NCBI RefSeq assembly: GCF_964355755.1
Contig: NC_092680.1
Location: 20,779,045 to 20,843,044 of the forward strand
DNA: 64,000 nt
Source: Antedon mediterranea
Lineage: Eukaryota > Animalia > Echinodermata
Direction of reading: 5' to 3'
Shown here one piece after another: positions 757 to 49,310 of this stretch. The notes beneath the pieces were generated by a model that did no database searches, was not told the DNA's origin, and saw only the letters and a list, made by a program, of their open reading frames with translations. How positions within the stretch are numbered: the stretch's first letter is position 1; each line of letters starts with the position of its first letter. The translations under genes were made by a program, and so were the position numbers.

Positions 757-3700
757 ATTGTAAACTATATACAGCATGTCTATGGAAAGAGGTAAACAGA
801 ATAATTAAAGCAGTAAACATAAATTGTAAACTATACAGTATGTCTATGGAAAGAGATAAACAGAATAATTAAAGCAGTAAACATACATTGTAAACTATAC
901 AGTATGTCTATGGAAAGAGGTAAACAGAATAATTAAAGCAGTAAACATACATTGTAAACTATACAGTATGTCTATGGAAAGAGATAAACAGAATAATTAA
1001 AGCAAAACATACATTGTAAACTATACAGTATGTCTATGGAAAGAGATAAACAGAATAATTAAAGCAGTAAACATACATTGTAAACTATACAGTATGTCTA
1101 TGGAAAGAGATAAACAGAATAATTAAAGCAGTAAACATACATTGCAAACTATACAGTATGTCTATGGAAAGAGATAAACAGAATAATTAAAGCAGTAAAC
1201 ATACATTGTAAACTATACAGTATGTCTATGGAAAGAGATAAACAGAATAATTAAAGCAGTAAACATACATTGTAAACTATACAGTATGTCTATGGAAAGA
1301 GATAAACAGAATAATTAAAGCAGTAAACATACATTGTAAACTATACAGTATGTCTATGGAAAGAGATAAACAGAATAATTAAAGCAGTAAACATACATTG
1401 TAAACTATACAGTATGTCTATGAAAGAGATAAACAGAATAATTAAAGCAGTAAACATACATTGTAAACTATACAGTATGTCTATGGAAAGAGATAAACAG
1501 AATAATCAAAGCAGTAAACATACATTGTAAACTATACAGAATGTCTATGGAAAGAGATAAACAGAATAATTAAAGCAGTAAACATACATTGTAAACTATA
1601 CAGTATGTCTATGGAAAGAGGTAAACAGAATAATTAAAGCAGTAAACATACATTGTAAACTATACAGTATGTCTATGGAAAGAGATAAACAGAATAATTA
1701 AAGCAGTAAACATACATTGTAAACTATACAGTATGTCTATGGAAAGAGGTAAACAGAATAATTAAAGCAGTAAACATACATTGTAAACTATACAGTATGT
1801 CTATGGAAAGAGGTAAACAGAATAATTAAAGCAGTAAACATACATTGTAAACTATACAGTATGTCTATGGAAAGAGATAAACAGAATAATCAAAGCAGTA
1901 AACATACATTGTAAACTATACAGTATGTCTATGGAAAGAGATAAACAGAATAATTAAAGCAGTAAACATACATTGTAAACTATACAGTATGTCTATGGAA
2001 AGAGATAAACAGAATAATCAAAGCAGTAACCATACATTGTAAACTATACAGTATGTCTATGGAAAGAGATAAACAGAATAATTAAAGCAGTAAACATACA
2101 TTGTAAACTGTACAGTATGTCTATGGAAAGAGATAAACAGAATAATTAAAGCAGTAAACATACATTGTAAACTATACAGTATGTCTATGGAAAGAGATAA
2201 ACAGAATAATCAAAGCAGTAAACATACATTGTAAACTATACAGAATGTCTATGGAAAGAGATAAACAGAATAATTAAAGCAGTAACCATACATTGTAAAC
2301 TATACAGTATGTCTATGGAAAGAGATAAACAGAATAATTAAAGCAGTAAACATACATTGTAAACTATACAGTATGTCTATGGAAAGAGGTAAACAGAATA
2401 ATTAAAGCAGTAACCATACATTGTAAACTGTACAGTATGTCTATGGAAAGAGATAAACAGAATAATTAAAGCAGTAAACATACATTGTAAACTATACAGT
2501 ATGTCTATGAAAGAGATAAACAGAATAATTAAAGCAGTAAACATACATTGTAAACTATACAGTATGTCTATGGAAAGAGATAAACAGAATAATTAAAGCA
2601 GTAAACATACATTGTAAACTATACAGTATGTCTATGGAAAGAGATAAACAGAATAATTAAAGCAGTAAACATACATTGTAAACTATACAGTATGTCTATG
2701 GAAAGAGATAAACAGAATAATTAAAGCAGTAAACATACATTGTAAACTATACAGTATGTCTATGGAAAGAGATAAACAGAATAATTAAAGCAGTAAACAT
2801 ACATTGTAAACTATACAGTATGTCTATGGAAAGAGATAAACAAAATAATTAAAGCAGTAAACATACATTGTAAACTATACAGTATGTCTATGGAAAGAGA
2901 TAAACAGAATAATTAAAGCAGTAAACATACATTGTAAACTGTACAGTATGTCTATGGAAAGAGATAAACAGAATAATTAAAGCAGTAAACATACATTGTA
3001 AACTATACAGTATGTCTATGGAAAGAGATAAACAGAATAATCAAAGCAGTAAACATACATTGTAAACTATACAGAATGTCTATGGAAAGAGATAAACAGA
3101 ATAATTAAAGCAGTAACCATACATTGTAAACTATACAGTATGTCTATGGAAAGAGATAAACAGAATAATTAAAGCAGTAAACATACATTGTAAACTGTAC
3201 AGTATGTCTATGGAAAGAGATAAACAGAATAATATAAGCAGTAAACATACATTGTAAACTATACAGTATGTCTATGGAAAGAGATAAACAGAATAATCAA
3301 AGCAGTAAACATACATTGTAAACTATACAGTACGTCTATGGAAAGAGATAAACAGAATAATTAAAGCAGTTAACATACATTGTAAACTATACAGTACGTC
3401 TATGGAAAGAGGTAAACAGAATAATTAAAGCAGTAAACATACATTGTAAACTGTACAGTATGTCTATGGAAAGAGGTAAACAGAATAATTAAAGCAGTAA
3501 ACATACATTGTAAACTATACAGTATGTCTATGGAAAGAGATAAACAGAATAATCAAAGCAGTAAACATACATTGTAAACTATACAGTATGTCTATGGAAA
3601 GAGATAAACAGAATAATTAAAGCAGTAAACATACATTGTAAACTATACAGTATGTCTATGGAAAGAGATAAACAGAATAATTAAAGCAGTAAACATACAT

Positions 3701-4410
3701 TGTAAACTGTACAGTATGTCTATGGAAAGAGATAAACAGAATAATATAAGCAGTAAACATACATTGTAAACTATACAGAATGTCTATGGAAAGAGATAAA
3801 CAGAATAATTAAAGCAGTAAACATACATTGTAAACTATACAGTATGTCTATGGAAAGAGATAAACAGAATAATTAAAGCAGTAAACATACATTGTAAACT
3901 ATACAGTATGTCTATGGAAAGAGATAAACAGAATAATTAAAGCAGTAAACATACATTGTAAACTATACAGTATGTCTATGGAAAGAGATAAACAGAATAA
4001 TTAAACCAGTAAACATACATTGTAAACTATACAGTACGTCTATGGAAAGAGATAAACAGAATAATCAAAGCAGTAAACATACATTGTAAACTATACAGTA
4101 TGTCTATGGAAAGAGATAAACAGAATAATTAAAGCAGTAAACATACATTGTAAACTATACAGTATGTCTATGGAAAGAGATAAACAGAATAATTAAAGCA
4201 GTAAACATACATTGTAAACTATACAGTATGTCTATGGAAAGAGATAAACAGAATAATTAAAGCAGTAAACATACATTGTAAATAAACTATACAGTATGTC
4301 TATGAAAGAGATAAACAGAATAATTAAAGCAGTAAACATACATTGTAAACTATACAGTAAGTCTATGGAAAGAGAGATACACAGAATAACTAAAGCAGTA
4401 TACATACATT
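757..4410. repeat. 64-bp tandem satellite, ~57 copies
   Basis: Unit CATTGTAAACTATACAGTATGTCTATGGAAAGAGATAAACAGAATAATTAAAGCAGTAAACATA repeats head-to-tail with few substitutions. Confidence 0.97.
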
Positions 4411-10302: not shown

Positions 10303-11600
10303 TTACAATTCTGACATTTCACTGGATGTTGTTTTTGTCTGAGATCCTTCAGATGATTCTGTACAAAGACAAAACAAGAAATTAACATTTTAATAATTTT
10401 AACAAACAATATATTATGACACAAACAATGGAAATAAAATAATAAAATTAGGCCTAGCATAATTATTGAGTAAATACTGGGAAACAGAAAGTTCTACTGC
10501 CAGCAATAGACTGAATTTAATATATAGCATGCAGGCGTCGTGCCATCAGAGAAGAAGATTACGGTAGCTTATTGCCGATTGTTTTAGTGTTTAGTGATGA
10601 ATATATAGCATGCAGGCGTCGTGCCATCAGAGAAGAAGATTACGATAGCTTATTGCCGATTGTTTTAGTGTTTAGTGATGAATATATAGCATGCAGGCGT
10701 CGTGCCATCAGAGAAGAAGATTACGGTAGCTTATTGCCGATTGTTTTAGTGTTTAGTGATGAATATATAGCATGCAGGCGTCGTGCCATCAGAGAAGAAG
10801 ATTACGGTAGCTTATTGCCGATTGTTTTAGTGTTTAGTGATGAATATATAGCATGCAGGCGTCGTGCCATCAGAGAAGAAGATTACGGTAGCTTATTGCC
10901 GATTGTTTTAGTGTTCAGTGATGAATATATAGCATGCAGGCGTCGTGCCATCAGAGAAGAAGATTACGGTAGCTTATTGCCGATTGTTTTAGTGTTCAGT
11001 GATGAATATATAGCATGCAGGCGTCGTGCCATCAGAGAAGAAGATTACGGTAGCTTATTGCCGATTGTTTTAGTGTTCAGTGATGAATATATAGCATGCA
11101 GGCGTCGTGCCATCAGAGAAGAAGATTACGATAGCTTATTGCCGATTGTTTTAGTGTTCAGTGATGAATATATAGCATGCAGGCGTCGTGCCATCAGAGA
11201 AGAAGATTACGATAGCTTATTGCCGATTGTTTTAGTGTTCAGTGATGAATATATAGCATGCAGGCGTCGTGCCATCAGAGAAGAAAATTACGATAGCTTA
11301 TTGCCGATTGTTTTAGTGTTCAGTGATGAATATATAGCATGCAGGCGTCGTGCCATCAGAGAAGAAGATTACGGTAGCTTATTGCCGATTGTTTGTGTTT
11401 AGAATACTGATGATGAAACAATTGAGATTTAATCAAGATGAGTTAATGGTGAAACAAACATGAACTTACCTGTTGCAAAAAGCGCTTGACATGAGCAGTA
11501 TTCATAGCCTTCTTTCTTCCACATGGAACAGAATCCTTTTGCAAACACTTGTCAAGATCAATTAAGTGATGGTGGTCATATACATTACAATTACAACAAT
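10303..11600 (-). pseudogene. Relic 3' end of a paralogous ROCO gene: last COR exon fragment plus a short terminal exon
   Basis: 11470-11600 encodes HLIDLDKCLQKDSVPCGRKKAMNTAHVKRF, matching HLIDLDKCLKNDSVPCGRRTNMNTAHIKRF at 15083-15190, with a GTAAGT donor. 10303-10358 follows an AG and starts AATCATC like the DED exon, reading ESSEGSQTKTTSSEMSEL*. Confidence 0.65.
10519..11395. repeat. 81-bp tandem repeat, ~11 copies
   Basis: ATATATAGCATGCAGGCGTCGTGCCATCAGAGAAGAAGATTACGRTAGCTTATTGCCGATTGTTTTAGTGTTYAGTGATGA; source of the 276-aa repetitive ORF. Confidence 0.95.
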
Positions 11601-13616: not shown

Positions 13617-16600
13617 CTATTCTAACTTTTCTGCAGCAACAGTCATATTATTCTTTTTCAAATGTTCGATAAATGACAGCAACCTGTCTTCCCTTAGGAT
13701 GCCTCTCTGTTCAAGATCTAGAATCACAATCCACTGGTTTTCACGTTGTTTCCTAGAAACATTATTTAGATGGATGAGCGTTGTTACATTGTCTTGGGAA
13801 AGCGTATTGCCGAAATCTATCAACTTCTGTCGGTACGTTGTAACAGTTGTTACATGATGATCGGATTCATCGAACGCGTTCTTCAGATATTTGTTATCCT
13901 CAAGAGCACCTTTGGTACCGGTGACATTGATGATATCGATAAGAACTTTAAAGTTGGTTACGTGAAGATGACCAGCCTTTTTCAATAAATTAAACAACTC
14001 CATGGTGGTGTCAGCCTTCTGTAGAGCATTGTAAGGCGTTATCAGATCTTTGCACAACACCTTCAGCATATCAAGTGAGTCATGCTCATCATACCAATTC
14101 GATACTTGTACCAACATTGTTTGAAATTTCTCCTTTGATGATTCTTTAAAAAAGCAATGAATAAGTAAAAACACAATATTTTTTCTAAAATATAATAGTT
14201 AATTATATCTCAACCGTAATAGTAATAGTAAATAATAATTGTTGACTATTTTTTATTTTTTAAAGGTATTCAGTTAAAATATATACAATAATTATGTACA
14301 ATATGTATTATATGGATGGAAATTAGAAGAAAATAATATTAAATGTCTGGTGTTTTTAAATTTTCTTTTTAATAACACATGTATATTGCACCAATAATAT
14401 TAATGCTCAGTATATCACTGGGTGGTTTAGAGTTTCTTATATGCCTATTAATATATAAATATAAACATAGTTACCTCCAAATGCCCTTGACAAAGACTCT
14501 GACACTGACTCTGGCTGTAACATTGGCTCTGGCTCTGACACTGACTCTGGCTGTAACATTGGCTCTGGCTCTGACACTGACTCTGGCTGTAACATTGGCT
14601 CTGACACTGACTCTGGCTGTAACATTGGCTCTGACTCTGACACTGACTCTGGCTGTAACATTGGCTCTGGCTCTGACACTGACTCTGGCTGTAACATTGG
14701 CTCTGGCTCTGACACTGACTCTGGCTGTAACATTGGCTCTGACTCTGACACTGACTCTGGCTGTAACATTGGCTCTGACTCTGACACTGACTCTGGCTGT
14801 AACAGTGGCTCTGGCTCTGACACTGACTCTGGCTGTAACATTAGCTCTGGCTCTGACACTGACTCTGGCTGTAACATTGGCTCTGGCTCTGACACTGACT
14901 CTGGCTGTAACATTGGCTCTGGCTCTGACACTGACTGTAACATTGGCTCTGAAGTTGGATTTGAATAATTATAATAAGTAAATATAAGAATATGTAAAAA
15001 AAGGAAAGAAAATTGCATAATATAATAATGACAATAATTATGATGAAGTAATTTGTATGACAACGAGCAAGTACAGACTTACCGGTCAAAAAAAATCGCT
15101 TGATATGAGCAGTATTCATATTCGTCCTTCTTCCACATGGAACAGAATCATTTTTCAAACACTTGTCAAGATCAATTAAGTGATACTCTTTTGGGTTACA
15201 AGCAGTGCATAACACACGTAGATTGTAGCCAATGCCCTCGTAGATATTGCAAACAGTTTTCAGTTGCTCCTTTAAATAGCTTAGTACCTAAAACATAAGA
15301 TTGATGTGTTTACAGTATTTATAGATTTATATTACATATTACAGGATAAGTTTGTACATAACACATAGATTGTAGCCAATGCCCTCATATATATTACAAA
15401 TAGTTCTCAGTTGCTCCTTTAAATAGCTTAGTACCTAAAACAAAGATTGATGTGTTTACAGTATTTATATGACAGGATAAGTGGATTACCTCCATGCAAA
15501 CACTTGGTTCTGGTTTAAATATCAACTTGGTTTTTTTTCCATCACCTACTATAGACTGCACAACTTCAGTCCTGCGCAATATTTCAAGCTGCCAAAAAAC
15601 AAAATGTATTCATTAACAAATGTAATAGCCCATCCTCTGATTTTATACTCTATACACATTTGAACATATTTGCATGGTAGGGGCATGGTGATCAGATTAA
15701 AATGTTATATATACTATTGTTACCTAAATGTTATGCTTTTTCTTTAAATAAAAATGTTATAGAACAAATAGTAATCAAATTCATACCTTTAATGCATGTG
15801 GTTTTTCCTTTTCATGGTAAATTCTGACAGAGCCTAAACTGACAGTGTGATTACTAAATTTGAAATCACTACGATTACGGAACACTTCTGAATCATCACT
15901 ACCCTTTTCAGTCATCAATTCCAGGAATGCAACAACCAACGTGTTGTACACAGCATCAGGAAGAAAGTCTGTCGGAGTCAGATAAATTGATACCGTTTGT
16001 GTGTCATCTGCTTTGACTTTCAGAAAGTCTTTTTTGTCAACTTTCATTCGGCAGGGAACCAGGAATACCCGATTACCTTCTTCAATTCCCTGTTAATTTA
16101 AACATCACAATTACACATAAATTGGTATAAGTGATTAGTAAGAGCTTAATCAAAGAAACGATTAAAAGTTTATAGTTATTTACCAACCTTTGTCTTCTCA
16201 AAGAGCAAACGAAAAACTTTCATCAATTCTACAAAGACATCAAAGAGATCTTCATCTTCGTTTCTCCACAAATAACATAGTAACTTTTCCTCAAGAACTC
16301 CTTCATTACTAAGCTTTTCCCATAGCATCTGTAATTGCTTCCGATCTTCTGCTTTCTTCTGTGTACAAAACACACAGTAAAATAGATGTTATAGACCTAC
16401 TGATGAGTTAAAGCAACCAATATAATACCAAGTTTCAAAAACTACATTAAACAGGGTCATATTATTTTACTCATGTGAAATCTAGTATAATATATAATAT
16501 TCCATGCCTATATATACCTACCACTTTAATAGTTGGTGTAACTACTGTGATAACTTTTGTCAAAATTTTAATCATCCAGAGAAGATTTGTTATCACAATG

Positions 16601-19600
16601 TTTCTTAATTTCTCATTAGTGCCGGTATACAAGATTATTCCAGTGTCATTCAGATACATTATCACAGTGGTGAGTACATGTTTGGATATATTACATTGAG
16701 TTGCTATCTCAGATACCTTTAAAACACAAATGACATTTTAATAAAATGCTATTATACTAAATTATCTGACAAACAAATTTAGCATTAGTAAATACAGTAA
16801 CAATGTTTTCTCCCAACTACAAGTCATATTATGCTTACATCAGGGAGTCTTATTTTACAACTAACTGGCTTCCATTAACTATTTGGGAATCTATTCGTTT
16901 TCATTTATTCGTTTATTCGTTTTGTTTATTCAATAAATATTCTCCACATATATTAAAAATACATACGAATAATACATATAAATAATAATAAAAAGTGAAG
17001 TACAGAGAGATTAGCCTATAGGAAGGTTAGCCTATACAAAGAGTCAAGTTTACTGTTTTGAATACATTGTTTTACATGACACTATAATGACAGCTGTTTT
17101 TAATGTGTATATTATTTTTGATCTGTATTTAATTGGATTTGTGTTGTTGTAGAAAAATGTTTTTGTGTTGAAAACCAAATTCAAACCTTACCTCAGTTAA
17201 GGTAATGCTTAATCTTGTTTTTCCAATTATTTGCAACTTTTCCTGTAACTCAACCCACTTTACAGGAACTTTTCTCACCATTTCCTTCATATGTCTACCA
17301 ACGTTTCTCTTAAGTTTTATAATGCCTTCATGTGACTTTACAGTGTTATCCACCATGTACATTTCACGATCTACATGCTTGGCATACGGCATTCCTTTCA
17401 TTGCATCAAACATCTGCATGAACATCTCCTCAGCCTTTATTTGACGAAATTGTATAATCATAAATTTACTAAATAATAAAATATGTTTGTTTTCTATCTT
17501 ATACTACAAATCTGTTGAGCATATTGCAGGTTTAGTTTTGTTGAATAGTTATATAAATGTATACTACAGTTATTACCTTCATCTGCTTTTCTAATTTTGT
17601 GCCTGACAATTTGTCCATATGGGTAGCAACCAAACAGATAGGAGGTGACTCTATGCTTTTGTCATCAACAAAAACGGGGTTTCCTGAACCATGTTGTAAC
17701 ACAGTATGTTCATAAATAGACCTTACCCAGAAAAAATTCATGTCCAAATTAGTCATACCAAGCGATTCCTGAAATCAAATATGAATAATCAAAAAAGGAT
17801 ATTGAAATTACAATTTAACTCATTTGTATTAAACAAAATTGCTAAATAATACATTTTACTTACTATTGTTGAATCTCGTGGATTAGCTAGTTCATTCAAG
17901 TTGTCCATGACATTAAATGTAACACAGTATGATACTTTATTTGTGAGGAAAAACTGAAAAAAGTTAAGGGACCATTTACCTTTTCTTTATCTTAATTCCT
18001 TATTGTAATATTTACCTGATTCGTTATAACTATCTGTGGATGTCATAATGGTAAAAATGGTTAAATTTGTTTGGTTTTTTAGTCAGTACCATGAGAAAAT
18101 TGTGCACATATGCAGTAATTTAATTTAATAACTGAATTTTATAATAAATTTCTAAAAATGCCGACATTTTTAGAAAGAAATGTCACTGATATCAGATACA
18201 CCGTACTAGTCTACAATATTACATTATATCGAATAGTAATATAGTGGTAGTACTTTACAGAATAAGTAATTACGTATTCTTTAAAAAAAGCTTTCATGTA
18301 CAAAACATACTTATTCAGGTGAAGGTTAGAATAATATATAAATGCATAAAGTTTGTAAAAATGGTATTTGGGTAAGAGAACACAGATTTACTCTGGTGGT
18401 CCTCCATAAATTTAACTTATAGGCTTACATTGTTTGTTACTACTTTCTATTTAGGTCTAGAATAAATTATAATAACGGAAGTGAACAGATGCAATTACTT
18501 GTATCTATATTAATACCCAAATAAGAAAAATCTAGTTTTAAATTCCAAAATTTCTCTTATGAATGTAATAAAAATGCCCCAAAATAAACATACCCTGTGT
18601 GTTATGTAGTAGTCTAGTTGACCAGCATAGTCCCATATACTAGTTATGTCACTCACATTTGCTTTTTCTTTTCCAATTATTTTCATCCAAATATTCAAAA
18701 GTTGACCCACAATTGTTGTATCATTGCTTTCTAAAACAAAAATTATAATATTTGTCTTTAATTAAAGACTGTGTGTATATGAAACCCACAAAATAGATTG
18801 ATCAATCTGTGTTGTAAATCTGCAGATGATTTTAGAATGATTTTTTAATTCAGTAGTCTGTGCCTACCTTTCCCTAATTTCTTATCCACATTTTCTGCTA
18901 ATGCATGTGCACGTACTTTCTTGGATAACTCAACACCTTTACAAAGCAAGACAAAAAAGCATGATCATAGACAGAGTGGTTACGAGTTAGAGAAAGAAAT
19001 ACAAATAGTAGGACCTACATTTAAAATAGAAATAAATAATTCATTCCTTTTAAACTTTGATGTAATGGGGTGCAAATTTATGGAATTGGTGCAATATTTC
19101 TAAAGACTTCATAATTTAAAAATAGAAAATATTTTAATTAAATTTAATGTAGAGTATATACATACACATTCTTTCTAACATTGTTCAATCTGTCTGTCTT
19201 TATACTATGTATGTAACTGAACAATGCTTTTTTTATTTGTTAAAGTTACGAGAGTTTGTTTGATGCTGACTCACCATCTACATCTGTCACTTCGTTCCAC
19301 GTACTACAATCCTCCGTTGTTGCTTGAAAAACTGTAGTTGTTACGATACCATCTGTTGATGGCTCTCTGGAATTAAACCTATTATAATAATGTATGGTAA
19401 AGTGAAACATTATCATGATTTTAAAATAATCAAGACATATATTATTTACTGAAAAAACAGAAACTGTATAAATAATAAATTAAATAATCATTGTATAGTT
19501 TACTTTTGTAGAACTATATGCATTTAATAGTAAAAAAATCATCTAAAAATTCAATTAAATCTTCAATTCAACAGGAAATAATGTTTATTTGAATAAACAA

Positions 19601-22600
19601 ACAGGCTTTCTATCAAAGTACTATCATTACTCATAGCGGTTATTTTTTACCTTTCACCAAGCATAGCCTTTACACAACTAGTCTTGCCAGCACCCTCTTT
19701 CCCAAGAAACATACATCTTGAATTCACAACTGAAATCTCACCATTTTGAAGCTCATCTTTGTATATTTTAATAGCATCTTTACCCTTGGAATATACTTCT
19801 GCTGGAACTAATAATTCTAATATAAAAATATCAATATAACATTTTGAAAATTTCAAATTTGAAATTCACTTTTTTATTCACACATAACATCAGCATACAA
19901 GATTAACATCTAAATCTAAATTATTTATCAATGTCTATTAATAGACATTGATAAATAATTTAATTGTTGTTTTAATATTTTTTATGTATTGTTCCGCAAA
20001 ACATGAAAAATGAAGATTGATAAAAAGCCATTATGTAGTTTTAATCAAGTTATTTCCTGAACAGTCACAATGACATCCCACAGACAATTTGACTTTGAAT
20101 AAATTTCAAATACTGTAAATGATTGCGTTCTTCGGTTACATTTTTGGTCAAAGTAAATAACTACCATATTTACCATTGGAATATACTGCTGGAACTAATA
20201 AATCTAATATTTATATCATTATCAAATTTAAAACCATGTCAAATAATGTTTTATTGTTCATAAAGAACCTCTTACAAGATAAAAATATAAACTTACTGTC
20301 AAAGTAGATTGCAATCTTGTTTTTTTCTTTTTCACTGATGTATGCATTTTTTTCTAAAATATTCACTGGTGTGTTTCCTTCCTATAAACAATTAATTAAT
20401 ATTTTAGTTTAGTATTAAGAAATAATATGAATTGATATTGGCTACTGAGCGGTACATAATCCAGACACCCATATCAAAAACAATCAAAAATCACTATTCT
20501 GTAGTGTATTCTAATAATGTGTAAAAGAGAAACTGCTAGTATGGTTGATATACAGACCCTACACCATTAAACCAATGGTGATTTCATGCTATCTCAAAGT
20601 CAGATTAAATAGCAAACTCCTTTATTGTATTTATTTATTATTAATATTAGTAATAGTAAAGCAATTTTACAAATGAATAACCATTTCAAAACTCATATTA
20701 TCAATTTTTTATAAATATATTGGTATCTTTATCTTTATAAAAACATAGTGGTAAGGTTGTTAGGCACCCTTTCCAAATCTATTCGTGGTACAACCAAAAT
20801 TTCCATATCTCTTCACACTACAATTAAGTTGTAAGTATGGGTGTGTGGAATTTAGTTCTTTCTTTTCTATTGGAAAGGAAATCGGCAAGCCATTGCATGA
20901 TACAACCATACAAAAGTAAGAAGTCTACTGTATAAAGGCAATGCGATGCGATGAGTGAAATAATCAATTTATGGTACATTTTTATATATTTTATGGTGTA
21001 AATTATGTTATTTGCTTTTTGTTGTTATTATATTACAAATAGTTAAAGACTAAAAGTAGAACAGAAAAAATCTTTATATAATTATAATAATTATGAAGTT
21101 TTAAAAAAAACTAGATAAAAGATTTTTCTGACACATTAATAATTATACATTTTACTCTGTTAGGTTTACAATATATACTATATATTATTCATATTATGAT
21201 ATTATACCATTCTCAATGCAGTAATTAATCCTAATTACAGTATTTTTAATGATAAACTAGACACAAAAAGTGATTAATTGATTATCATTATCATGAGTGA
21301 GAAAAAAAATATGGTTACAGTTACTGTAACCATATTTTATAGTAAGTATACTGTATGTATTATTCAGATAATTATATGACTAGAATTGACTGGCCAAAAC
21401 GCCTCAGATGCTATCTCCGGCCGTCTAGAAAAAAAATTTTGGACCCGGACCCCCCTAGACGATTATTTTCTCATATCGGCCCCCTCTTTATCAAAATCCT
21501 ATATGGATAACAGCTATATAACAACCAATAAATGTATAGCAAAACACATCTCATCACAAATGGTAAAGTATACTGTGTGTATTCTCTTGCAACTTAATCC
21601 TGTAGTAAATTTGTTGCAGTTAAGTTCATTATAATTTACATCATTGTCTACGTTTGTTACAGTATCTTATAGTAATTTATACAATCTTATGAATCGTTAT
21701 ACCTAGTCTTAAAAATAATTGCATTTTGAAATGAGTAAATTATTTCTTTTTTGTTAATCCAATACAAGAAAACAAATAAGTATGTAATAAGTATGTGTAA
21801 ATGTGTGTATGTATAGTGTCATACAGTAATTGTGTATTATTGTAAATAAAACAATTACCTTATTTTGCAATGACAATGATGCACCATGCTGTTGTATGAG
21901 GAATTCCACTATTTCCAAGGTACAATATCTATTACTCACATACAAATGAAGTGGAGTGTCTCCATCCTTGATAAACAAAATCGTAATCATAAGTTCAATA
22001 ATATTGATAACAGCTATATAAGTAATTGATAAGTGCTAAATAGACAACCAATAAATGTATAGCAAAACACATCTCATCACAAATGGTAAAGTATACTGTG
22101 TGTATTCTCTTGCAACTTAATCCTGTAGTAAATTTTTTTTTTTTTTTTTTTTTTTTAACCATATTTAATGAGGGTGATCCATCCAGCTGTTGCTGATCAT
22201 TAGGGACCCTCAGAGGTTCACAAGACAAACATATACACAAGATGCTCTACATAAACAAAGTCTTATTACAAGTCTTTGGGAGTGGGGTAATTTGGTCCTT
22301 AGAAAAAATCCTGACATGTGACGGGACTTGAACCCAGGATCATTGGAGTGGTAGACAAGCATCATAACCACCAAGCCACAACTCCACTGTTGCAGTTTAA
22401 ATTCATTATAATTTACATCATTGTCTACCTTTGTTACAGTATCTTTACATAGTAATTTATACAATCTTATGAATAATTGTTATACCTAGTCTTGAAAATA
22501 ATTTCATTTTGAAATGAGTAAATTATTTCTTTTTTGTTAATCCAATACAAGAAAACAAATAAGTATGTAATAAGTATGTGTAAATGTGTGTATGTACTGT

Positions 22601-24580
22601 CATACAGTAATTGTGTTTTATTGTAAATAAAACAATTACCTTATTTTGCAATGACAATGATGCACCATGCTGTTGTATGAGGAATTCCACTATTTCCAAG
22701 GTACAATATCTATTACTCACATACAAATGAAGTGGAGTGTCTCCATACTTGATAAACAAAATCATAATCATAAGTTCAATAATATTAATAACAGCTATAT
22801 AAGTAATTGATAAGTGCTAAATAGACAACCAATAAATGTATAGCAAAACACATCTCATCACAAATGGTAAAGTATACTGTGTGTATTCTCTTGCAACTTA
22901 ATCCAGTAGTAAATTTGTTGCAGTTAAGTTCATTATAATTTACATCATCATTGTCTACCTTTGTTACAGTATCTTTACATAGTAATTTATGCAATCTTAT
23001 GAATTGTTATACTTAGTCGTGAAAATAATTTCATTTTGAAATGAGTAAATTATTTCTTTTTTGTTGATCCAATACAAGAAAACAAATAAGTATGTAATAA
23101 GTATGTGTAAATGTGTGTATGTACTGTCATACAGTAAGTGTATAATAGTGAAAAAAATTACCTTATTTTGCAATAATAGTGATTTACCATCGTGTACGAG
23201 GCATGCTATCAATATTTCTGAGGTAGGTTCTGTATCATACAACGACAAATACAAATGAAGTGGAGTGTTTCCATCCTTGATGAACAAAATCATAATCATA
23301 AGTTCAATAATATTGATAACAGCTATATAAGTAATTGATAAGTGCTAAATAGACAACCAATAAATGTATAGCAAAACACATCTCATCACAAATGGTAAAG
23401 TATACTGTGTGTATTCTCTTGCAACTTAATCCTGTAGTAAATTTGTTGCAGTTAAGTTCATTATAATTTACGTCATTGTCTACCTTTGTTACAGTATCTT
23501 TACATAGTAATTTATGCAATCTTATGAATTGTTATACTTAGTCTTGAAAATAATTTAATTTTGAAATGAGTAAATTATTTCTTTTTTGTTAATCCAATAC
23601 AAGAAAACAAATAAGTATGTAATAAGTATGTGTAAATGTGTGTATGTACTGTCATACAGTAATTGTGTATTATTGTAAATAAAACAATTACCTGATTTTG
23701 CAATGACAATGATGCACTATGCTGTTGTATGAGGAATTCCACTATTTCCAAGGTACAATGTTCATACCACAAATACAAATGAAGTGGAGTGTCTCCATTC
23801 TTGATAAACAAAATCATAATCATAAGTTCAATAATATTGATAACAGCTATATTAGTAATTGATAAGTGCTAAATAGACAACCAATAAATCTATAGCATAG
23901 CGTCATTTCATACAAGTGTTTTTTGTAAAAAGGAAACGTTCTCTGTAAATCTAAACTATGCATAATGTATGATTCTTTTTATATACCTCATCAGTAGTTT
24001 TTAAAATATCTGGATGTTCCCTGCAAATGCGTTCAATTTTCTTCAAGTCCCCATTACGCATAGCTTGTTTCAACTCGTACCTGTCAAAATGCAAGAAATA
24101 ATGCATTACTGTATTACCAGAGATTTGATGAGAATAACAGTTCATTATAATAATATTTATAATTTTATAAGAAAATCGTACCCTAGTGTTTTTTTAAAAT
24201 TTTAATCTTGTAAATAATTATGTATGTTTACACTTAATTCAGCCAAGGATGTTTTTCAGGCACAGCCATAAATAAAATTATAAACACAAAAGAAGGAAAC
24301 CATTAAAAATATAATAATGTAGGTTAGTAAACTCATTTTACATTGTTTTTCAATTATTATACTTCTTATACATTTCAGAATGAATATCTAGATGGTGGAT
24401 TTATAATAAAATTTAAAAATCCGTCCGTTTCACTTATTCTGATTAGTATAAAATGAAATTCAAGTTTAATTATTTCTATATTTTTTAATGTTAGTGTATA
24501 CATCGAGTCTGCTTGATTTGAATTAAAAAATAAAAACAAAATAAAACAACATACCTAGTATACCACAGAATTGAAGACAT
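13617..24580 (-). CDS. ROCO-family protein: ankyrin repeats, Roc GTPase, COR, Pro/Glu/Ser linker, tandem DED-like domains (multi-exon)
   Basis: Phase-compatible GT-AG exons (approx.): 24555-24580 (MSSILWYT), 23987-24080; ANK 23692-23799, 23162-23275, 22640-22747, 21859-21966; 20297-20381; Roc 19651-19816 (VPAEVYSKG..GKEGAGKTS P-loop), 19275-19378 (STDGI), 18868-18936, 18594-18730 (WDYAGQ), 17864-17953, 17577-17768 (LVATHMD); COR 17192-17434, 16520-16716, 16188-16358, 15787-16089, 15490-15588, 15083-15287; linker 14475-14948; last exon 13617-14143 with two DED-like helical units and TAG. Confidence 0.88.
14475..14948 (-). repeat. Coding minisatellite exon, 36/30-bp unit (PESVSEPEPMLQ)n, ~13 copies
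   Basis: 474 nt between TTCAG and G|GTAAC, phase 1-1, open in frame with the flanking ROCO exons. Confidence 0.75.
21385..21505. mobile_element. Fragment of a DNA-transposon/MITE end at the edge of the ankyrin cassette array
   Basis: GC-rich island AAAACGCCTCAGATGCTATCTCC...GGACCCCCCTAGAC...CCCCCTCTTTATCAAAATCCT resembling common non-autonomous element termini. Confidence 0.4.
21505..23897 (-). repeat. Tandem array of ~500-528-bp exon+intron cassettes, each carrying one ankyrin-repeat exon (4 exons)
   Basis: Marker ATAACAGCTATAT recurs at ~21507, 22007, 22788, 23316 and 23840; intronic parts are near-identical. Confidence 0.95.
22133..22387 (-). mobile_element. Young tRNA-derived SINE with poly(A) tail
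   Basis: Minus strand has A box TGGCTTGGTGG, B box GGTTCAAGTCC and a ~25-nt pure A tail. Absent from sister cassettes, whose empty site is GTAAATTTGTTGCAG. Confidence 0.85.
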
Positions 24581-32600: not shown

Positions 32601-35600
32601 ATTCAAATATAATTATAATCTTTTCTGTCACCAACGTTACAAAGTTTTTTAAAAGGTCAAAGTTTACAGATAAATAAAATATAAATTATCATTGGTTAGC
32701 GCTTACAGTTTTCGTCTTCTTTCTTCTGTTCGTTTCATTTCAGCTTCCTGCTTCAGTCTAGCACGTTTGGTGGCAGCATCTTGTCGTTTCTTCTTTAATT
32801 CTTCCTGTTCCTCATCTGTAAGAATCTTCCTCTTTCTATGCGGTAAGTCTTTTAATGACAATGATGGTGTGTTCGTACTTCTCCGTGACCTTTCACCTGA
32901 TGTGCTCTGTTCATTTTTCATTATCTTGGCTACGTGGTAAAGTAACATTTTGAATATTTTAATTAACAAATTTGTGTTTTTGTTAATCCTTTATGTACAC
33001 AGCCATGGATTATTAAGAAAGACTGTGTACACCTATCTGTTGAAGATAGAATTGTTTTGATATACAACTAAAAAAATATTTGCACATTTTTCAAGTATGC
33101 TTCAACCCTTATATTTTATTTGACAATCACCATTAACAAACATTAAAAATGATTACCTGCCAACATTTCATCAAAAGCATTGAGGGCAGCAGAGCTGGTT
33201 TCTTTCGAGTAGTCTTTACCTTCAAACATGTACATGTGACTATCTAATATTCAAATGTAAACAACAAACAAGACATTATTAATATAAAACTTAAGAGGCC
33301 AATAATAACTTTATTCAGTCTGTCCTACTACGGTTGCTTGAGGCTGTACTACTGAATTGAAGTCAAGTTGTAATTTATTTTTCTCAATTCTACATTAAAT
33401 AATAAATTAATTCCAATACCTTGCGTTTGGAAATCCTCACATGAGTCACTTATCAACTCAGCATCATCTTGGGCAGCGTCTAAATCCTCGTTACTCATCT
33501 TCCATTCTCCATCTACACTTGGTCCCAGTATTCTCTCAAGATCAATTCCGTTTGTCTGTTCTTCTTCAAGGAGTTTATCAAGTCCAAACTTAAGCATTTC
33601 AGACAGCTAAAAAAAAACCATGTTTTACATTTGTTATAAATTCTCACTAAAAAAAAAAATAAAACAAAAGAAATGAATTTAACATAAAAATTCAATGGGC
33701 TCAGAACTACAACCACCACCAGGAAATAGATTTTGGTCCTAAAAAATAATTTTTATATAATTAGTCATAACTAACACACCTGTTGTGGAGTTTCTGATGT
33801 ACCATTCTTGGTGCCTAAGGAGAATTGACCGCCCTCTATCACCGAAATGGTTAGCTTAAGCTTAGCATCTGCCCTTCGTAAAATCACTTCCTCAACTGAA
33901 TCTTTTCCAATTAAACGAATAATCTTTACTGGCCTTAAAAAACAAAATAAACAAGTTGTGATTAACAATAAAAACAAAAGTTTAGAATTTAGCTATTAGA
34001 AACAGATTACAACTAATGTTTTCAAGAGTGCATTGAAAACCTATCTGCTTTGGTTTTCCACAAGCGCCTTGAGCACTTTGGTGGATATGTACGCCTAACA
34101 AATCCTATTATAATTTCTATGATGTATAAAGAAAAAATAAGATAACTTACCGAGATTGTCCAATTCTATGAGCACGTGCAGAAGCTTGTAGATCATTCTG
34201 TGGGTTAAAATCTGTATCCAAGAATATCACGGTGTCTGCACTAACCAAGTTTAACCCTTGACCTCCAGCTTTAGTACTTAGTAAGAATACAAATGTCTTT
34301 TCATCTCGATTAAAATTCTTAATTGCTAAGAATCGTTCTTCACCTCTCACTGATCCATCAAGTCTTTCGTATGAGTAGCCTAGTGATCACAATAAAGAAA
34401 AATAAAATGTTAACAATACAGTTAGTTCTTCACCTCTCACTGATCCATCAAGTCTTTCATATGAGTAGCCTAGTGAGCACAACAAAGAAACATAAAATGT
34501 TAACAATACAGTTAGTTCTTCACCTCTCACTGATCCATCAAGTCTTTCATATGAGTAGCCTAGTGAGAACAATAAAGAAACACAAAATGTTAACAATACA
34601 GTTAGTTCTTCACCTCTCACTGATCCATCAAGTCTTTCATATGAGTAGCCTAGTGAGCACAATAAAGAAACATCAAATGTCAACAATACAGTTAGTTCTT
34701 TACCTCTCACTGATCCATCAAGTCTTTCATATGAGTAGCCTAGTGAGAACAATAAAGAAACATAAAATGTTAACAATACAGATAGTTCTTCACCTCTCAC
34801 TGATCCATCAAGTCTTTCGTATGAGTAGCCTAGTGAGCACAATAAAGAAACATCAAATGTTAACAATACAGTTAGTTCTTCACCTCTCACTGATCCATCA
34901 AGTCTTTCATATGAGTAGCCTGTGAGAACAATAAAGAAACATCAAATGTTAACAATACAGATAGTTCTTCACCTCTCACTGATCCATCAAGTCTTTCGTA
35001 TGAGTAGCCTAGTGAGCACAATAAAGAAACATCAAATGTTAACAATACAGTTAGTTCTTCACCTCTCACTGATCCATCAAGTCTTTCATATGAGTAGCCT
35101 AGTGAGAACAATAAAGAAACATAACATGTTAACAATACAGTTAGTTCTTCACCTCTCACTAATCCATCAAGTCTTTCATATGAGTAGCCTAGTGAGCACA
35201 ATAAAGATACATAAAATGTTAACAATACAGTTAGTTCTTCACCTCTCACTGATCCATCATGTCTTTCATATGAGTAGCCTAGTGATCACAATAAAGAAAC
35301 ATAGAATGTTAACAATACAGTTAGTTCTTCACCTCTCACTGATCCATCAAGTCTTTCATATGAGTAGCCTAGTGAGAACAATAAAGAAACATAAAATGTT
35401 AACAATACAGTTAGTTCTTCACCTCTCACTGATCCATCAAGTCTTTCATATGAGTAGCCTAGTGAGAACAATAAAGAAACATAGAATGTTAACAATACAG
35501 TTAGTTCTTCACCTCTCACTGATCCATCAAGTCTTTCATATGAGTAGCCTAGTGAGCACAATAAAGAAACATCAAATGTTAACAATACAGTTAGTTCTTC

Positions 35601-38600
35601 ACCTCTCACTGATCCATCAAGTCTTTCATATGAGTAGCCTAGTGAGCACAATAAAGAAACATAGAATGTTAACAATACAGTTAGTTCTTCACCTCTCACT
35701 GATCCATCAAGTCTTTCATATGAGTAGCCTAGTGAGCACAATAAAGATACATAAAATGTTAACAATACAGTTAGTTCTTCACCTCTCACTGATCCATCAA
35801 GTCTTTCATATGAGTAGCCTAGTGAGAACAATAAAGAAACATAGAATGTTAACAATACAGTTAGTTCTTCACCTCTCACTGATCCATCAAGTCTTTCGTA
35901 TGAGTAGCCTAGTGAGCACAATAAAGAAACATAGAATGTTAACAATACAGTTAGTTCTTCACCTCTCACTGATCCATCAAGTCTTTTGTATGAGTAGCCT
36001 AGTGAGAACAATAAAGAAACATAACATGTTAACAATACAGTTAGTTCTTCACCTCTCACTGATCCATCAAGTCTTTCATATGAGTAGCCTAGTGATCACA
36101 ATAAAGAAACATCAAATGTTAACAATACAGATAGTTCTTCACCTCTCACTGATCCATCAAGTCTTTCATATGAGTAGCCTAGTGATCACAATAAAGAAAC
36201 ATCAAATGTTAACAATACAGTTAGTTCTTCACCTCTCACTGATCCATCAAGTCTTTCATATGAGTAGCCTAGTGATCACAATAAAGAAACATCAAATGTT
36301 AACAATACAGATAGTTCTTCACCTCTCACTGATCCATCAAGTCTTTCATATGAGTAGCCTAGTGAGCACAATAAAGAAACATCAAATGTTAACAAGGTCT
36401 GTTTTACAGTACAGTGAAGTAGCCTCAAGGAAGTGGTGTAGTTTTCGCAAAAAAGGAAACAATATCTGTTTAAGTCACTTGGTTGTCAAAGGCCTCTGTA
36501 AAAAAGTGGTCAGGTTGAAACTTTACAAACCTTATTAGTGGCTAAGGCCCTGCAGTAGTTTTGATAGCTTTTTTAAATGTTATATATCTATATGTATCTC
36601 CATTGATGTCCAGCCACTGATACACACGGCATTGTCATTTTTTTTTAACAAGTTGCCTTTCGATATACAACTATATTAGTAATGTAACAGATGGATACAA
36701 TTTGTATACTGTATTGTGGATTTGTGGTGTTTTTTATGTATTTATGTGTGTTTGACCTGAATAAATGAATACCCTCTGTACTCTTTGGTGTTTGTGTTCC
36801 TAAAACTGACCTCTGAATCCTAGGTAATCCTGTACTATGTCCAACATCCTGGTCATCTGGGAGAAAAGAAGGACCTTATGACCATGTTGATATAGCAACA
36901 GAAGTAGTTGATCTAACAGGTGCAATTTACCACTTGCTTCAACCAGGTGTTCCCCAAGTTCAAATGGCTCTGGTTCCACACCTGCAAAGAGAAAGTTTAC
37001 CTTTTCCTTACTTCAACTTTTTATGGTAAGATTTGATAATCTCTAAAGGAGGTACTGTATTAATAAATTGAACTATTATTAAATTGAACTATTGACATTA
37101 AAAAATATTAATTTGAAAATTAGGATTAGTAAACAATGCCCAGGTGGAACTTAACATAAATTGTAAAGTGCAAAAGTACATACAATACAAATATCAAAGC
37201 AATGAAATTCCTAAATAATTACCATCAAATAAATATGGGTGACTGACACATTTCCTGAGTTGAATCATAATGTTCATAAGTTGTGTCTTAGATGGTCCAA
37301 TACAGTCTTGATTAAATGCAGCTGGAAAAAGAACATACAGAAACTATTATCTAGTACTCTTAATTACAAGTTGTACGTAATAACATTAAAAACTGTTGAA
37401 ACAGAGGTGTACAGTACATGAGAAATGTCATTAAAGTGAAGCTACAGCTTGAATTAGCAAAATTAAACGATATTGCTTCGTAAAGCTCAGCATTATTAGA
37501 TTCTTGGCCTTTTAAAATTGATTCAAGTTTTTTTTTAACAAACGATTCAAACGATAGCTGGTCTTCGCTTTCGAATTCAGCAGGCTTGGTATTTGCTCGT
37601 GTAGATCGTGACATGGCGGCCTAGAGAAAATTAATATGCAAGTAGTGCGTTTCAGGAGCTCGTTGTGTAAGCGTCTTACTCCGATCGAATCATTGAACTG
37701 TATTGACCTAGTGCCAAGGTTGTAACTCACCACTCTATCAACTCCACTCCCTTAAATAGTTTATCCATCCTGTAATTGGCGAGTTTACTCACTGTTGGAT
37801 ATAGTATGAAATTTAAAAAAAAAGGTGATATAAATCCGATTGAAAACTTGCTTTATAAATGTCACAAGATGGATGCACAGAATTCAACTGACCATAGTCT
37901 TTAAGAAGCACAGCTTTGTAGTACTTTTTCTGTAGGGCTGTTAGTCCATGAAATAGAACAACTTCAGTCTTCTTTGGCAGATCACTCAAAACTTCTGATT
38001 TAGTTCTTCTGAGTAGAAAAGGTGACAGCAAGTTGTGCAACTGGTTTTTCACTGTATGTGTATAATATAATTCATTATTTGGAAGGTTGAATTTCTATAG
38101 TTTTAGATTTTTAATACAATCATTTAGAAATGTCAAGAATTTGTTAATATGCCTAATTTTTCAATTTCTTTGTTATAAAAGGCTGTAGAACAAATTAAGC
38201 AGAGTATATTTATAGACAAGAATTAACTCAATTGTTTTTGTTTTTAAATCCAATTTAGAACTACCTGAATCGTCATCTATATTTTCAAAATAATCTATGA
38301 AATCTTGCGAGTATTTCTGTTTGAATATCTTGGGTGCAATGAATGCTAATAGGTTATACAGTTCCTTTAAATTATTCTGTACTGGTGTTCCTGTGAGCAG
38401 AAGACGTGTCACATCAAACTAGAAAAAACAAGAGGGCATATTTGTAGTTATAAACATATCAAATAAAGACTGTGAGCTTGAACAGGATCATGTAGGAAAA
38501 TACAGTAATCTAATTATCATACTTTTCTCGAACATAAAAACTCTCAGTTAAATGATATTGACTTACATTACTGAGTGCTTGATGGAGCATAGCGTTTGAG

Positions 38601-47717: not shown

Positions 47718-49310
47718 ATGACAACTGCAAACCTTTCTCCTGTTACCGAATGTACACAATGTGAACACGAATTTGACAGTGAAGTTCGAGTTCCAAAGGT
47801 TCAACCGTGTGGCCATACACTCTGCTCATCATGTTCTGAAAAGCTATACGACAGCAAATGGAAACGACTGAAGTGTCCACAATGCAAAGTCACCAGTACT
47901 GTAGATGACATCCAGAAGCTTCCGACTAACTTCAATGCACTCTCTGTCGTGGATATCAATACTGATATGATGTCTCGGAAACAGTCCATGAAAGGTCTGG
48001 TTGGTAACTTCATGGCTCAACTAAGCGATCAGGCGACCAAGCTTAGCAAGATCTCTGAGAGGCAAGAGAAGTTCCATGCGAACTACTCCCAGGTGAAGGA
48101 GGAAGTAGAAACATGCTTTAGTTCTCTAATCAAAGATTTAGAAGAAAGACGTGATGCACATTTATACGAGATGGAAGGAATTCGAATGGCAGAAATAGAG
48201 ATACTTCAAAAGCAAAAGAAACGGGTTGAAGCATTTCTTGGCTGCATCAACTCTGAACTTCAAGATCAAGAAGAAGATAAACTGTTCGATAGATTCCGTT
48301 CGGAGATGGATAACATCAAGTCGTTTGTTTCAGGCTTAGACCAGACGATAAAAACGATTTCGTTCGCGCCATCGAATAAAGGAGAAACGAGCATAGTATC
48401 CAAGCAGGTAGGGGCTTTGACGATTGGATTGGATAACGGTAAGGATCTAAAAGAATGTCATCTGCCAAACGTTACAAAAAATAAAGGGAAAGTCTCTAAA
48501 GTATTCAAAGAAAAATCATTCGGTTGTCTCGTTGACGTCACCGTCCTGTCGAATGATCTGCTGGCCGCAACTGATTCGAAGAGAAACTGCGTACATCTTT
48601 TGAATAAGTCTGGTAGCATTGTGACCTCTGTTGGTGATAGAGGGGTTGGGAAGGGTCAGTTTGTGTCCCCTGCAGGAATTTGCCAAAACAGCTTTGGTGA
48701 TATTTTGGTGGCCGATAAAGGTAACAACCGGGTTCATATCAGGTCAGTAACGGGAGAGTTCAAAGGCTTCTTTGAAAGTACCGTTAACAGCGTAAATATC
48801 TTGGATACACCAGTGGGTATATCTTGTAACCGAATGGGAAAGGTGTTTGTCTGTAGTCAAGGCAACCATTGTGTGCAAGTATTTTCAGAAGATGGCAAGT
48901 ACTTAAGTAAAATAGGTTCCCCTGGATGTGGAGACGGGTTGTTTAAGCAACCAGAGTTCGTTGCTTCCTCATTGGATGGCCGTATATTTGTCACCGATTC
49001 CGATAATGGCCGAGTTTCTGTATTCTCACAAGACGGAAGTTTTCTCAAGCACATTCGGCATCATAAAAATACGTCAGACTTCACTCCAAGAGGAATCTGC
49101 CTCAACACACAGGCAGATGTGTTTGTGTGCGGGTTAGATGCTATAGAAGTGTTCGATCAGAACGGAGAGTTTCTCTTTTCGTTTCCTGTTCTGAGATCTA
49201 AAGCAATGTTCAAAGCACAGGCAGGTTCGATAGGCGGAATCTGCATGGCTCTGGACACAGGTCTAGTCGTGGCTGGAGGAGAAGATCAAATTATTCATAT
49301 TTTCTCCTAA
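47718..49310 (+). CDS. RING finger - coiled coil - NHL repeat protein (TRIM2/3/71-like E3 ligase), intronless CDS
   Basis: 530-aa ORF with C3HC4 RING (CTQC..PCGHTLCSSC..CPQC), a coiled coil and NHL repeats (GQFVSPAGI, VADKGNNRV, FKQPEFVA, VTDSDNGRV). The ATG directly follows a TTTTTATAG acceptor. Confidence 0.93.
   Translation: MTTANLSPVTECTQCEHEFDSEVRVPKVQPCGHTLCSSCSEKLYDSKWKRLKCPQCKVTSTVDDIQKLPTNFNALSVVDINTDMMSRKQSMKGLVGNFMAQLSDQATKLSKISERQEKFHANYSQVKEEVETCFSSLIKDLEERRDAHLYEMEGIRMAEIEILQKQKKRVEAFLGCINSELQDQEEDKLFDRFRSEMDNIKSFVSGLDQTIKTISFAPSNKGETSIVSKQVGALTIGLDNGKDLKECHLPNVTKNKGKVSKVFKEKSFGCLVDVTVLSNDLLAATDSKRNCVHLLNKSGSIVTSVGDRGVGKGQFVSPAGICQNSFGDILVADKGNNRVHIRSVTGEFKGFFESTVNSVNILDTPVGISCNRMGKVFVCSQGNHCVQVFSEDGKYLSKIGSPGCGDGLFKQPEFVASSLDGRIFVTDSDNGRVSVFSQDGSFLKHIRHHKNTSDFTPRGICLNTQADVFVCGLDAIEVFDQNGEFLFSFPVLRSKAMFKAQAGSIGGICMALDTGLVVAGGEDQIIHIFS

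Follow-up and report, generated by a model that had tools for sequence, protein, structure and literature searches.

Intron-framed ankyrin exon cassettes in a ROC-COR-DED gene of Antedon mediterranea, a candidate variable intracellular sensor

Results

Architecture of the ROCO gene

A 64,000-nucleotide (nt) stretch of the Antedon mediterranea genome (contig NC_092680.1, positions 20,779,045 to 20,843,044; the whole stretch is called the window and all positions are given in its coordinates) contains an intact ROCO gene in which four consecutive exons, the cassettes, each encode one ankyrin repeat (ANK). Exon divergence concentrates at repeat positions 1 and 10–14. The four modules open the gene, ahead of ROC-COR-DED-DED, and probably form a variable sensor surface, one that is likely to be diversified by germ-line unequal crossover or conversion in the near-identical introns coupled with diversifying selection on residues of the binding face. 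A COR-exon query retrieved protein P0001 (XP_071964214.1, Antedon mediterranea, 1205 amino acids (aa)) with 100% identity. This gene model includes all four cassettes and is the single annotated protein for the window gene, which has the following parts.

13617..24580, minus strand: intact ANK-ROC-COR-linker-DED-DED (ROCO) gene, ~20 coding exons, 1205 aa (exon-by-exon frames, protein mapping and domains)
24555..24580, minus strand: first coding exon, MSSILWYT (sequence and start of P0001)
23987..24080, minus strand: N-capping ankyrin exon, end phase 0 (frames; modelled helices 2–17 and 21–30)
20297..20381, minus strand: C-capping ankyrin exon (frames and structure model)
15083..19816, minus strand: ROC and COR exons (reading frames; Pfam on P0001)
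19816..19651 and 18730..18593, minus strand: exons with the ROC motifs, P-loop GKEGAGKTS in the former and WDYAGQ in the latter
14476..14952, minus strand: Pro/Glu/Ser-rich linker exon of 36-bp repeats, coding
13617..14143, minus strand: last exon, tandem death-effector domains (Pfam DED)

Pfam was used to assign the domains of P0001. Roc scores 34.9 bits (cut-off 27) and COR-A scores 62.2 bits (cut-off 35.3) at residues 524–683, directly after ROC. The window gene is thus classified from its sequence as a non-kinase ROCO by both defining domains. The DED family is matched in two stretches at 41.1 bits when the last exon is scanned alone, and at 31.6 bits, below the cut-off of 35.9, in the whole protein. 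The Pfam scan of P0001 found no kinase, NACHT or NB-ARC family (E ≤ 0.01) and no extracellular or membrane domain.

Cassette exons and introns

The cassettes and their introns lie between the capping exons.

23692..23799, minus strand: cassette exon E1, 108 nt, patch LWYEH
23758..23772, minus strand: hypervariable patch of E1, repeat positions 10–14 (end of helix 1 and lengthened helix 1–helix 2 loop)
23276..23691, minus strand: cassette intron I1, 416 nt
23162..23275, minus strand: cassette exon E2, 114 nt, divergent 38-aa repeat
22748..23161, minus strand: cassette intron I2, 414 nt
22640..22747, minus strand: cassette exon E3, 108 nt, patch VSNRY
21967..22639, minus strand: cassette intron I3, 673 nt including an insertion
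22136..22388, minus strand: poly(A)-tailed SINE-like (short interspersed element) insertion of ~253 bp, in I3 only (alignment)
21859..21966, minus strand: cassette exon E4, 108 nt, patch VSNRY, differing from E3 at 1 nt
21503..21858, minus strand: homologous 5′ part of the last cassette intron (I4)

The first-pass annotation of this DNA, made from the letters alone, had described four phase 0–0 exons of 108, 114, 108 and 108 nt with one repeat each in near-identical introns. The AG..GT ends and the reading frames agree with this description for 4/4 exons, and the cassette introns are 2–4% apart. Ankyrin repeats with the TPLH consensus are recognized by Pfam Ank above the cut-off (21.1 bits) in three of the four exons; E2 lies below it at 14.7 bits, and all four exons fold as repeats in the structure model. 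The insertion in I3 occurs as a single copy within the window and is labelled SINE-like from its putative A/B-box motifs; Rfam returned chance-level matches only, none near threshold. It provides a marker for dating later duplications. An assembly artefact was considered as the origin of the array and ruled out by the many differences between copies, the one-copy insertion and the related cassettes in sequencing runs of three organisms.

Divergence of exons and introns

E1 differs from E3 at 10/108 exon positions compared with 10/332 intron positions (Fisher p = 0.014), and from E4 at 10/108 compared with 11/332 (Fisher p = 0.018). In both comparisons, all 10 exon changes are non-synonymous and none is synonymous, and the codons for LWYEH and VSNRY and the first residues (N/D/Y/D) are as first quoted. 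The first reading placed the E1 differences mainly in the patch and the first residue. This holds, with 7/10 changes in the 15 nt of the patch, and further changes lie at codon 28 (S/G) and codon 36 (Q/K). Seven of the 22 cassette differences between E1 and E4 are inside this one 15-nt stretch (permutation p = 1.5e-4), and 10 non-synonymous changes exceed the number expected at the intron rate (Poisson p = 4–8e-4). E1, E3 and E4 are ~3% apart in the introns and in the 3′ part of the exon, compared with 7/15 nt in the patch.

E2 differs from each other exon at 21–22/105 positions when gaps are free, compared with 11–16/~330 intron positions (p ≤ 9e-6). In a codon alignment 32–33/108 nt differ, and the proportions of non-synonymous (pN) and synonymous (pS) differences are ~0.33 and ~0.20. 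The differences between E2 and E1 are unevenly spread: 3 lie upstream, 2 in exon nt 1–27 and 32 in the remaining exon, followed by 5 in the first 30 nt of the downstream intron and 5 in the next 240. For E3 the 270-nt downstream comparison window entered the insertion, so only the E1–E4 and E1–E2 rows were used. The old core of E2 begins at exon nt 28 and ends ~30 nt inside the following intron, the limit of the homogenized frame on that side. The earlier description of E2 as a divergent exon in near-identical flanks stands for the exon, which is ~30% divergent, and gains this detail on its downstream side. The excess of exon over intron divergence is found for E1–E3, E1–E4 and the E2 pairs and is absent from E3–E4, where 1/108 exon and 11/329 intron positions differ (p = 0.31).

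The introns were also compared with each other. I1 and I2 are the closest pair (5/292, compared with 9–10/~289 for the others) and share both informative sites. I1 differs from I3 and from I4 at 9/289 positions. The histories of exons and introns disagree, since the introns behind the most different exons are the most alike and the pS of E2 is ~0.20. This pS lies far above the divergence of the E2 introns, so the homogenized flanks would point to unequal crossover or conversion in the introns.

Structural position of the variable residues

A model of the ankyrin region (217 aa) is an ankyrin solenoid with a predicted local distance difference test score (pLDDT) of 93.1 and a predicted template-modelling score (pTM) of 0.88. 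The nearest solved folds are fusions of designed ankyrin repeat proteins (DARPins), with a template-modelling (TM) score of 0.81 to 7tbn_A. In E1, helix 1 spans residues 45–51, the loop 52–56 and helix 2 57–66, so the patch (50–54) covers the helix end and the loop. E2 forms a normal repeat with helices at 81–86 and 95–104.

In earlier work on ankyrin proteins, the concave surface comprises positions 32–12, the most diverse positions are 1, 3, 11, 12 and 33, and positions 13–14 are contact-enriched (PMC8415598). A set of eight diverse or contact positions (33, 1, 3, 8 and 11–14) was taken from this source (PMC8415598). Six of the eight codons that change between E1 and E4 belong to the set (hypergeometric p = 3.6e-4), and the model places the patch across the helix 1 end and the loop; both results bear out the claim that variation sits on binding-face positions. 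Within-gene pairwise differences are 0.44–0.66 on the concave face compared with 0.03–0.18 in the framework in 4/4 Antedon proteins tested. This comparison omits E2, five long-loop repeats of the paralog P0021 and control repeats of other length or without the helix 2 anchor. The control proteins keep an invariant Gly13 turn; in the Antedon repeats this site is occupied by a loop that is longer and variable.

The cassette family

The COR-exon search yielded 102 candidates, and 16/16 matches are Antedon paralogs, many of them partial. Cassette-type repeats occur in proteins encoded on six chromosome-scale contigs, distinguished by their lengths, with 1–13 repeats each. Cassettes are carried by 12/13 proteins counted, which together have 52 repeats and 39 different patches at positions 10–14, and loop length in the family ranges from 6 to 23 residues. 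P0021 (XP_071943401.1) has 13 cassette-type repeats of two classes with loops of up to 23 residues and no ROC-COR, and is the most antibody-loop-like member. A single whole 36-aa cassette makes up the difference between two annotated isoforms of one paralog, XP_071957837.1 (295 aa) and XP_071957838.1 (259 aa); no cassette-skip isoform is on record for the window gene. A profile search gave 144 new proteins, of which 4 match the cassette motif and three are confirmed as Antedon. The relatives from Anneissia and Glandiceps do not match the motif, and among the proteins retrieved, repeats of the cassette type seem to be confined to the Antedon lineage. Searches with the ankyrin region were dominated by generic ankyrins (one new family member among 120 listed), and a further search gave none. 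A tree of 34 repeats (37 columns) left 20/30 inner branches open and did not place E2.

Several paralogs differ from the window gene outside the cassettes. P0005 and P0007 carry unrelated low-complexity repeats at the place of the linker (14476–14952, minus strand), and other tails include a second ROC-COR (P0002) and ZU5 (P0006). P0407 has an N-terminal stretch resembling reverse transcriptase that is probably an annotation fusion. At 11461–11598 (minus strand) the window holds a relic exon, the last COR exon of a further ROCO copy, which is 60% identical to P0001 and adjoins an 81-bp tandem array. Outside Antedon, P0017 of the abalone Haliotis rufescens has ~28 near-identical ankyrin repeats that vary at positions 11–12 and a precomputed PF00656 domain, and is a possible parallel repeat sensor in molluscs. 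P0019, P0020, P0024 and P0029 (ENA proteins) join ANK and ROC, have long arrays of similar repeats and represent a further parallel family.

Variants in public sequencing runs

Ten public runs match the window stretch or part of it, and six of these were compared as contigs. In a 338-nt stretch around E1, covered by four runs of two organisms, 16 of the 40 variant rows listed (56 in all) fall at 23758–23772. As many as three alternative letters occur at a single patch site, and 13/16 of these variants are at codon positions 1–2. Several contigs end at 23773, directly behind the conserved LHLY. Contig depth, which drops over the patch, served neither as evidence nor as a measure of copy number or expression. 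The cassette intron is also matched by contigs from organisms B and C, and one organism C contig covers an E2-like exon plus both flanks. Runs X8 and X9 contain intron-less joins of cap to cassette and cassette to cassette whose letters differ from the window locus. The joins are read as spliced family transcripts and not as proof for the window locus, with the RNA origin of X8 being a guess. In run X6 the unphased majority reads LRYGN, and LRYGH occurs in a cassette of paralog P0406. By hand reading, E3 and E4 lie one replacement per each of five codons from this state and E1 lies three changes from it, and for this reason repeated point substitution fits the patch better than a single import. 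In the N-capping exon, four substitutions in 12 nt (24019–24030) appear in contigs of 4/4 runs; we read them as changing three residues, and the window version may be derived.

Other features of the window

The remaining features lie outside the cassette array. A gene that we take to be CHD1L-like from its motifs, a helicase gene, contains a 90-bp tandem array of 23 units (34335–36395, minus strand). Each unit consists of an intron 3′ end, an acceptor and the initial 45 exon nt, and the array gives ~23 decoy acceptors ahead of the real exon. Intronic partial duplicates of an acceptor plus exon start occur at 20165–20205 and 15290–15434 (minus strand), derived from the first ROC exon and a COR exon, respectively. 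A single-open-reading-frame gene at 47718–49307 (plus strand) encodes a 529-aa RING, coiled-coil and NHL protein (TRIM-NHL-like). A 64-bp satellite at 757–4410 has 57 copies with 97% matches and is strongly A-skewed.

Discussion

The proposed mechanism starts with recombination in the shared introns, which would copy or delete whole in-frame cassettes and overwrite their flanks, so that an old core, as in E2, would come to lie in a young frame. Selection would favor replacements where helix 1 ends and in the loop lengthened by loss of the Gly13 turn, and occasional exon skipping would add cassette combinations. On binding a ligand, the protein would switch its ROC-COR GTPase and bring in a FADD/caspase-8-type partner through the DEDs. 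The outcome would be an NLR-like intracellular non-self sensor with the domain order reversed. Signaling to cell death through the DEDs is likely from the architecture of the protein, and positive selection on the binding-face residues is suggested by the sequence comparisons. The first-pass annotation had proposed diversification by crossover, conversion or skipping under positive selection. The variable cassette number in the family and the one annotated skip in a paralog agree with the first part of that proposal, and the selection part is suggested only, with p = 0.11 for the missing synonymous changes (0/10) taken by themselves.

Several observations, this p value among them, weigh against the interpretation. 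E3 and E4, 1 nt apart, are a plain recent duplicate, and the pS of ~0.20 means that the distance of E2 is largely age preserved in converted flanks. The discordance of the introns involves two informative sites only. Concave positions exceed the framework in two control proteins as well (abalone P0017, 0.38 compared with 0.12; P0020, 0.52 compared with 0.07), so this contrast is not unique to Antedon, and positions 11–12 are among the most diverse of ankyrins generally (PMC8415598). The run variants mix paralogs, alleles and species, and no contig spans the whole array. The exon structure of the paralogs is read from protein repeats only, and the one-cassette-skip isoform is the annotation of a truncated paralog. 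The search for orphan cassettes proposed earlier came out negative within the window: tblastn with the four cassette exons found only themselves and no orphan or inverted cassette. The window also duplicates intron/exon borders elsewhere without receptor logic.

These duplications of acceptors and exon starts feed an account without diversity selection, which we consider unlikely although it survives best among the alternatives. In it an exon was copied with its introns, the introns were homogenized by conversion, and the patch is old drift in a relaxed loop or one micro-conversion. The p value of 0.11, the pS of E2 and a loop freed by the loss of the Gly13 turn all suit it. Drift alone, however, cannot exceed the intron rate in E1, E3 and E4, whose 3′ exon part differs by 3% like the introns, and the same positions are variable in separate sub-lineages (P0005, P0277 and P0021). 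The preference of the run variants for codon positions 1–2 (13/16) also speaks against drift and is suggestive only.

Diversifying evolution of the same kind could instead serve a non-microbial ligand in allorecognition, in gamete recognition or in the guarding of fast-evolving self proteins, and this has a low probability in our estimate. Fungal ANK/WD NLRs with such a signature act in allorecognition (PMC4986451). The lack of an extracellular or membrane Pfam domain suggests a cytosolic protein, which is a poor fit with gamete recognition. Somatic fusion is not known in feather stars, which also counts against this account.

Combinatorial exon skipping as the main source of diversity, with many isoforms per gene in the style of brown-algal ROCO genes, is more doubtful still. 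The window gene has one annotated protein in which all four cassettes are used, and two of the four are near-identical and would yield few distinct surfaces. These points stand against the symmetric phase 0–0 exons, the one annotated skip in a paralog and the precedent of exon skipping in the brown algae (PMC11378527). Somatic rearrangement or mutation of cassettes in immune cells, as in the lamprey variable lymphocyte receptors (VLRs), is very improbable: it would match a variable patch between conserved flanks and the 6–23-residue loops of the family, but the 64 kb hold no donor cassettes, the gene is complete in the assembly, and germ-line processes account for all observations.

Germ-line diversification of the cassettes under selection remains the preferred interpretation. 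A bolder extension, to which we assign a small probability, is a natural DARPin-like library. Dozens of ROC-COR/DED genes would trade intron-framed cassettes with an antibody-like loop (6–23 residues), and crossover and skipping would reshuffle these in each individual or each immune cell, giving a large repertoire of cytosolic non-self sensors. If true, a deuterostome would have a diversified receptor system based on neither LRR nor Ig domains. The near-identical introns offer an internal neutral reference and shared PCR priming sites with which the cassettes of different individuals and cells could be catalogued.

Comparison with known systems

A literature search, which covered few subscription papers, returned no description of a ROCO family with ankyrin exon cassettes in crinoids or any other animals. 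The closest parallel is the leucine-rich repeat (LRR)-ROCO family of the brown algae Ectocarpus and Saccharina. There, every LRR has its own 72-nt exon, the concave face is under selection, introns contain spare repeat exons, and exons are skipped in splicing (PMC3341825, PMC11378527). Both systems place an N-terminal repeat sensor on ROC-COR with one repeat per symmetric exon, and both have an expanded family and variable binding-face residues. Exon skipping may be a further likeness, being annotated in one Antedon paralog. The first-pass annotation had drawn this analogy for Ectocarpus, and it is closer than stated there, since the host gene is itself a ROCO, which that annotation had overlooked. 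The Antedon cassettes encode ankyrin repeats in phase 0 exons of 108–114 nt, unlike the phase 2, 72-nt LRR exons of the algae. Antedon also has C-terminal DEDs and near-identical introns, and no intronic or inverted spare exons in the 64-kb window. The likeness would be convergent, Antedon being an animal.

In the ANK-NLRs of the fungus Podospora, repeat number is polymorphic and the concave face is under selection (PMC4986451). Concerted evolution of ankyrin repeats, variable concave positions and variable repeat number are common to both, the last across family members in Antedon. Antedon differs in having a ROC-COR GTPase rather than NACHT/NB-ARC, an N-terminal sensor with a C-terminal effector, repeats that are exons with their own introns, and an insertion loop after position 12. 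Spider silk genes (MaSp2 and flagelliform) have iterated, homogenized introns that are thought to promote unequal crossover (PMC9779670). Repeat exons between near-identical introns are shared with Antedon, but silk exons are homogenized structural repeats, whereas the Antedon exons diverge at predicted binding sites.

Animal ROCOs of the DAPK1/LRRK type combine ankyrin repeats with ROC-COR, and DAPK1 also has a death-fold tail. The Antedon protein differs from them in having no kinase domain and in belonging to a lineage-specific multigene family with young, variable repeats. In Aplysia, ROC-COR is reported to be fused to immune domains (PMC9334734). Engineered DARPin libraries resemble the Antedon ankyrin region in having an N-cap, variable internal repeats and a C-cap, and they are its nearest solved folds; the Antedon repeats are natural, 36–38 aa long and have a longer, variable helix 1–helix 2 loop.

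The Antedon system would work like the algal and fungal systems and is a member of neither. By analogy, the window gene is likely to represent in an animal what the variable candidate immune receptors represent in brown algae and fungi. These comparisons suggest that animal ROCO proteins without a kinase domain may act in an NLR-like way, and that variable repeat-sensor receptors have arisen along a third, independent path, in a deuterostome, after the brown-algal LRR-ROCO and the fungal ANK/WD-NLR.

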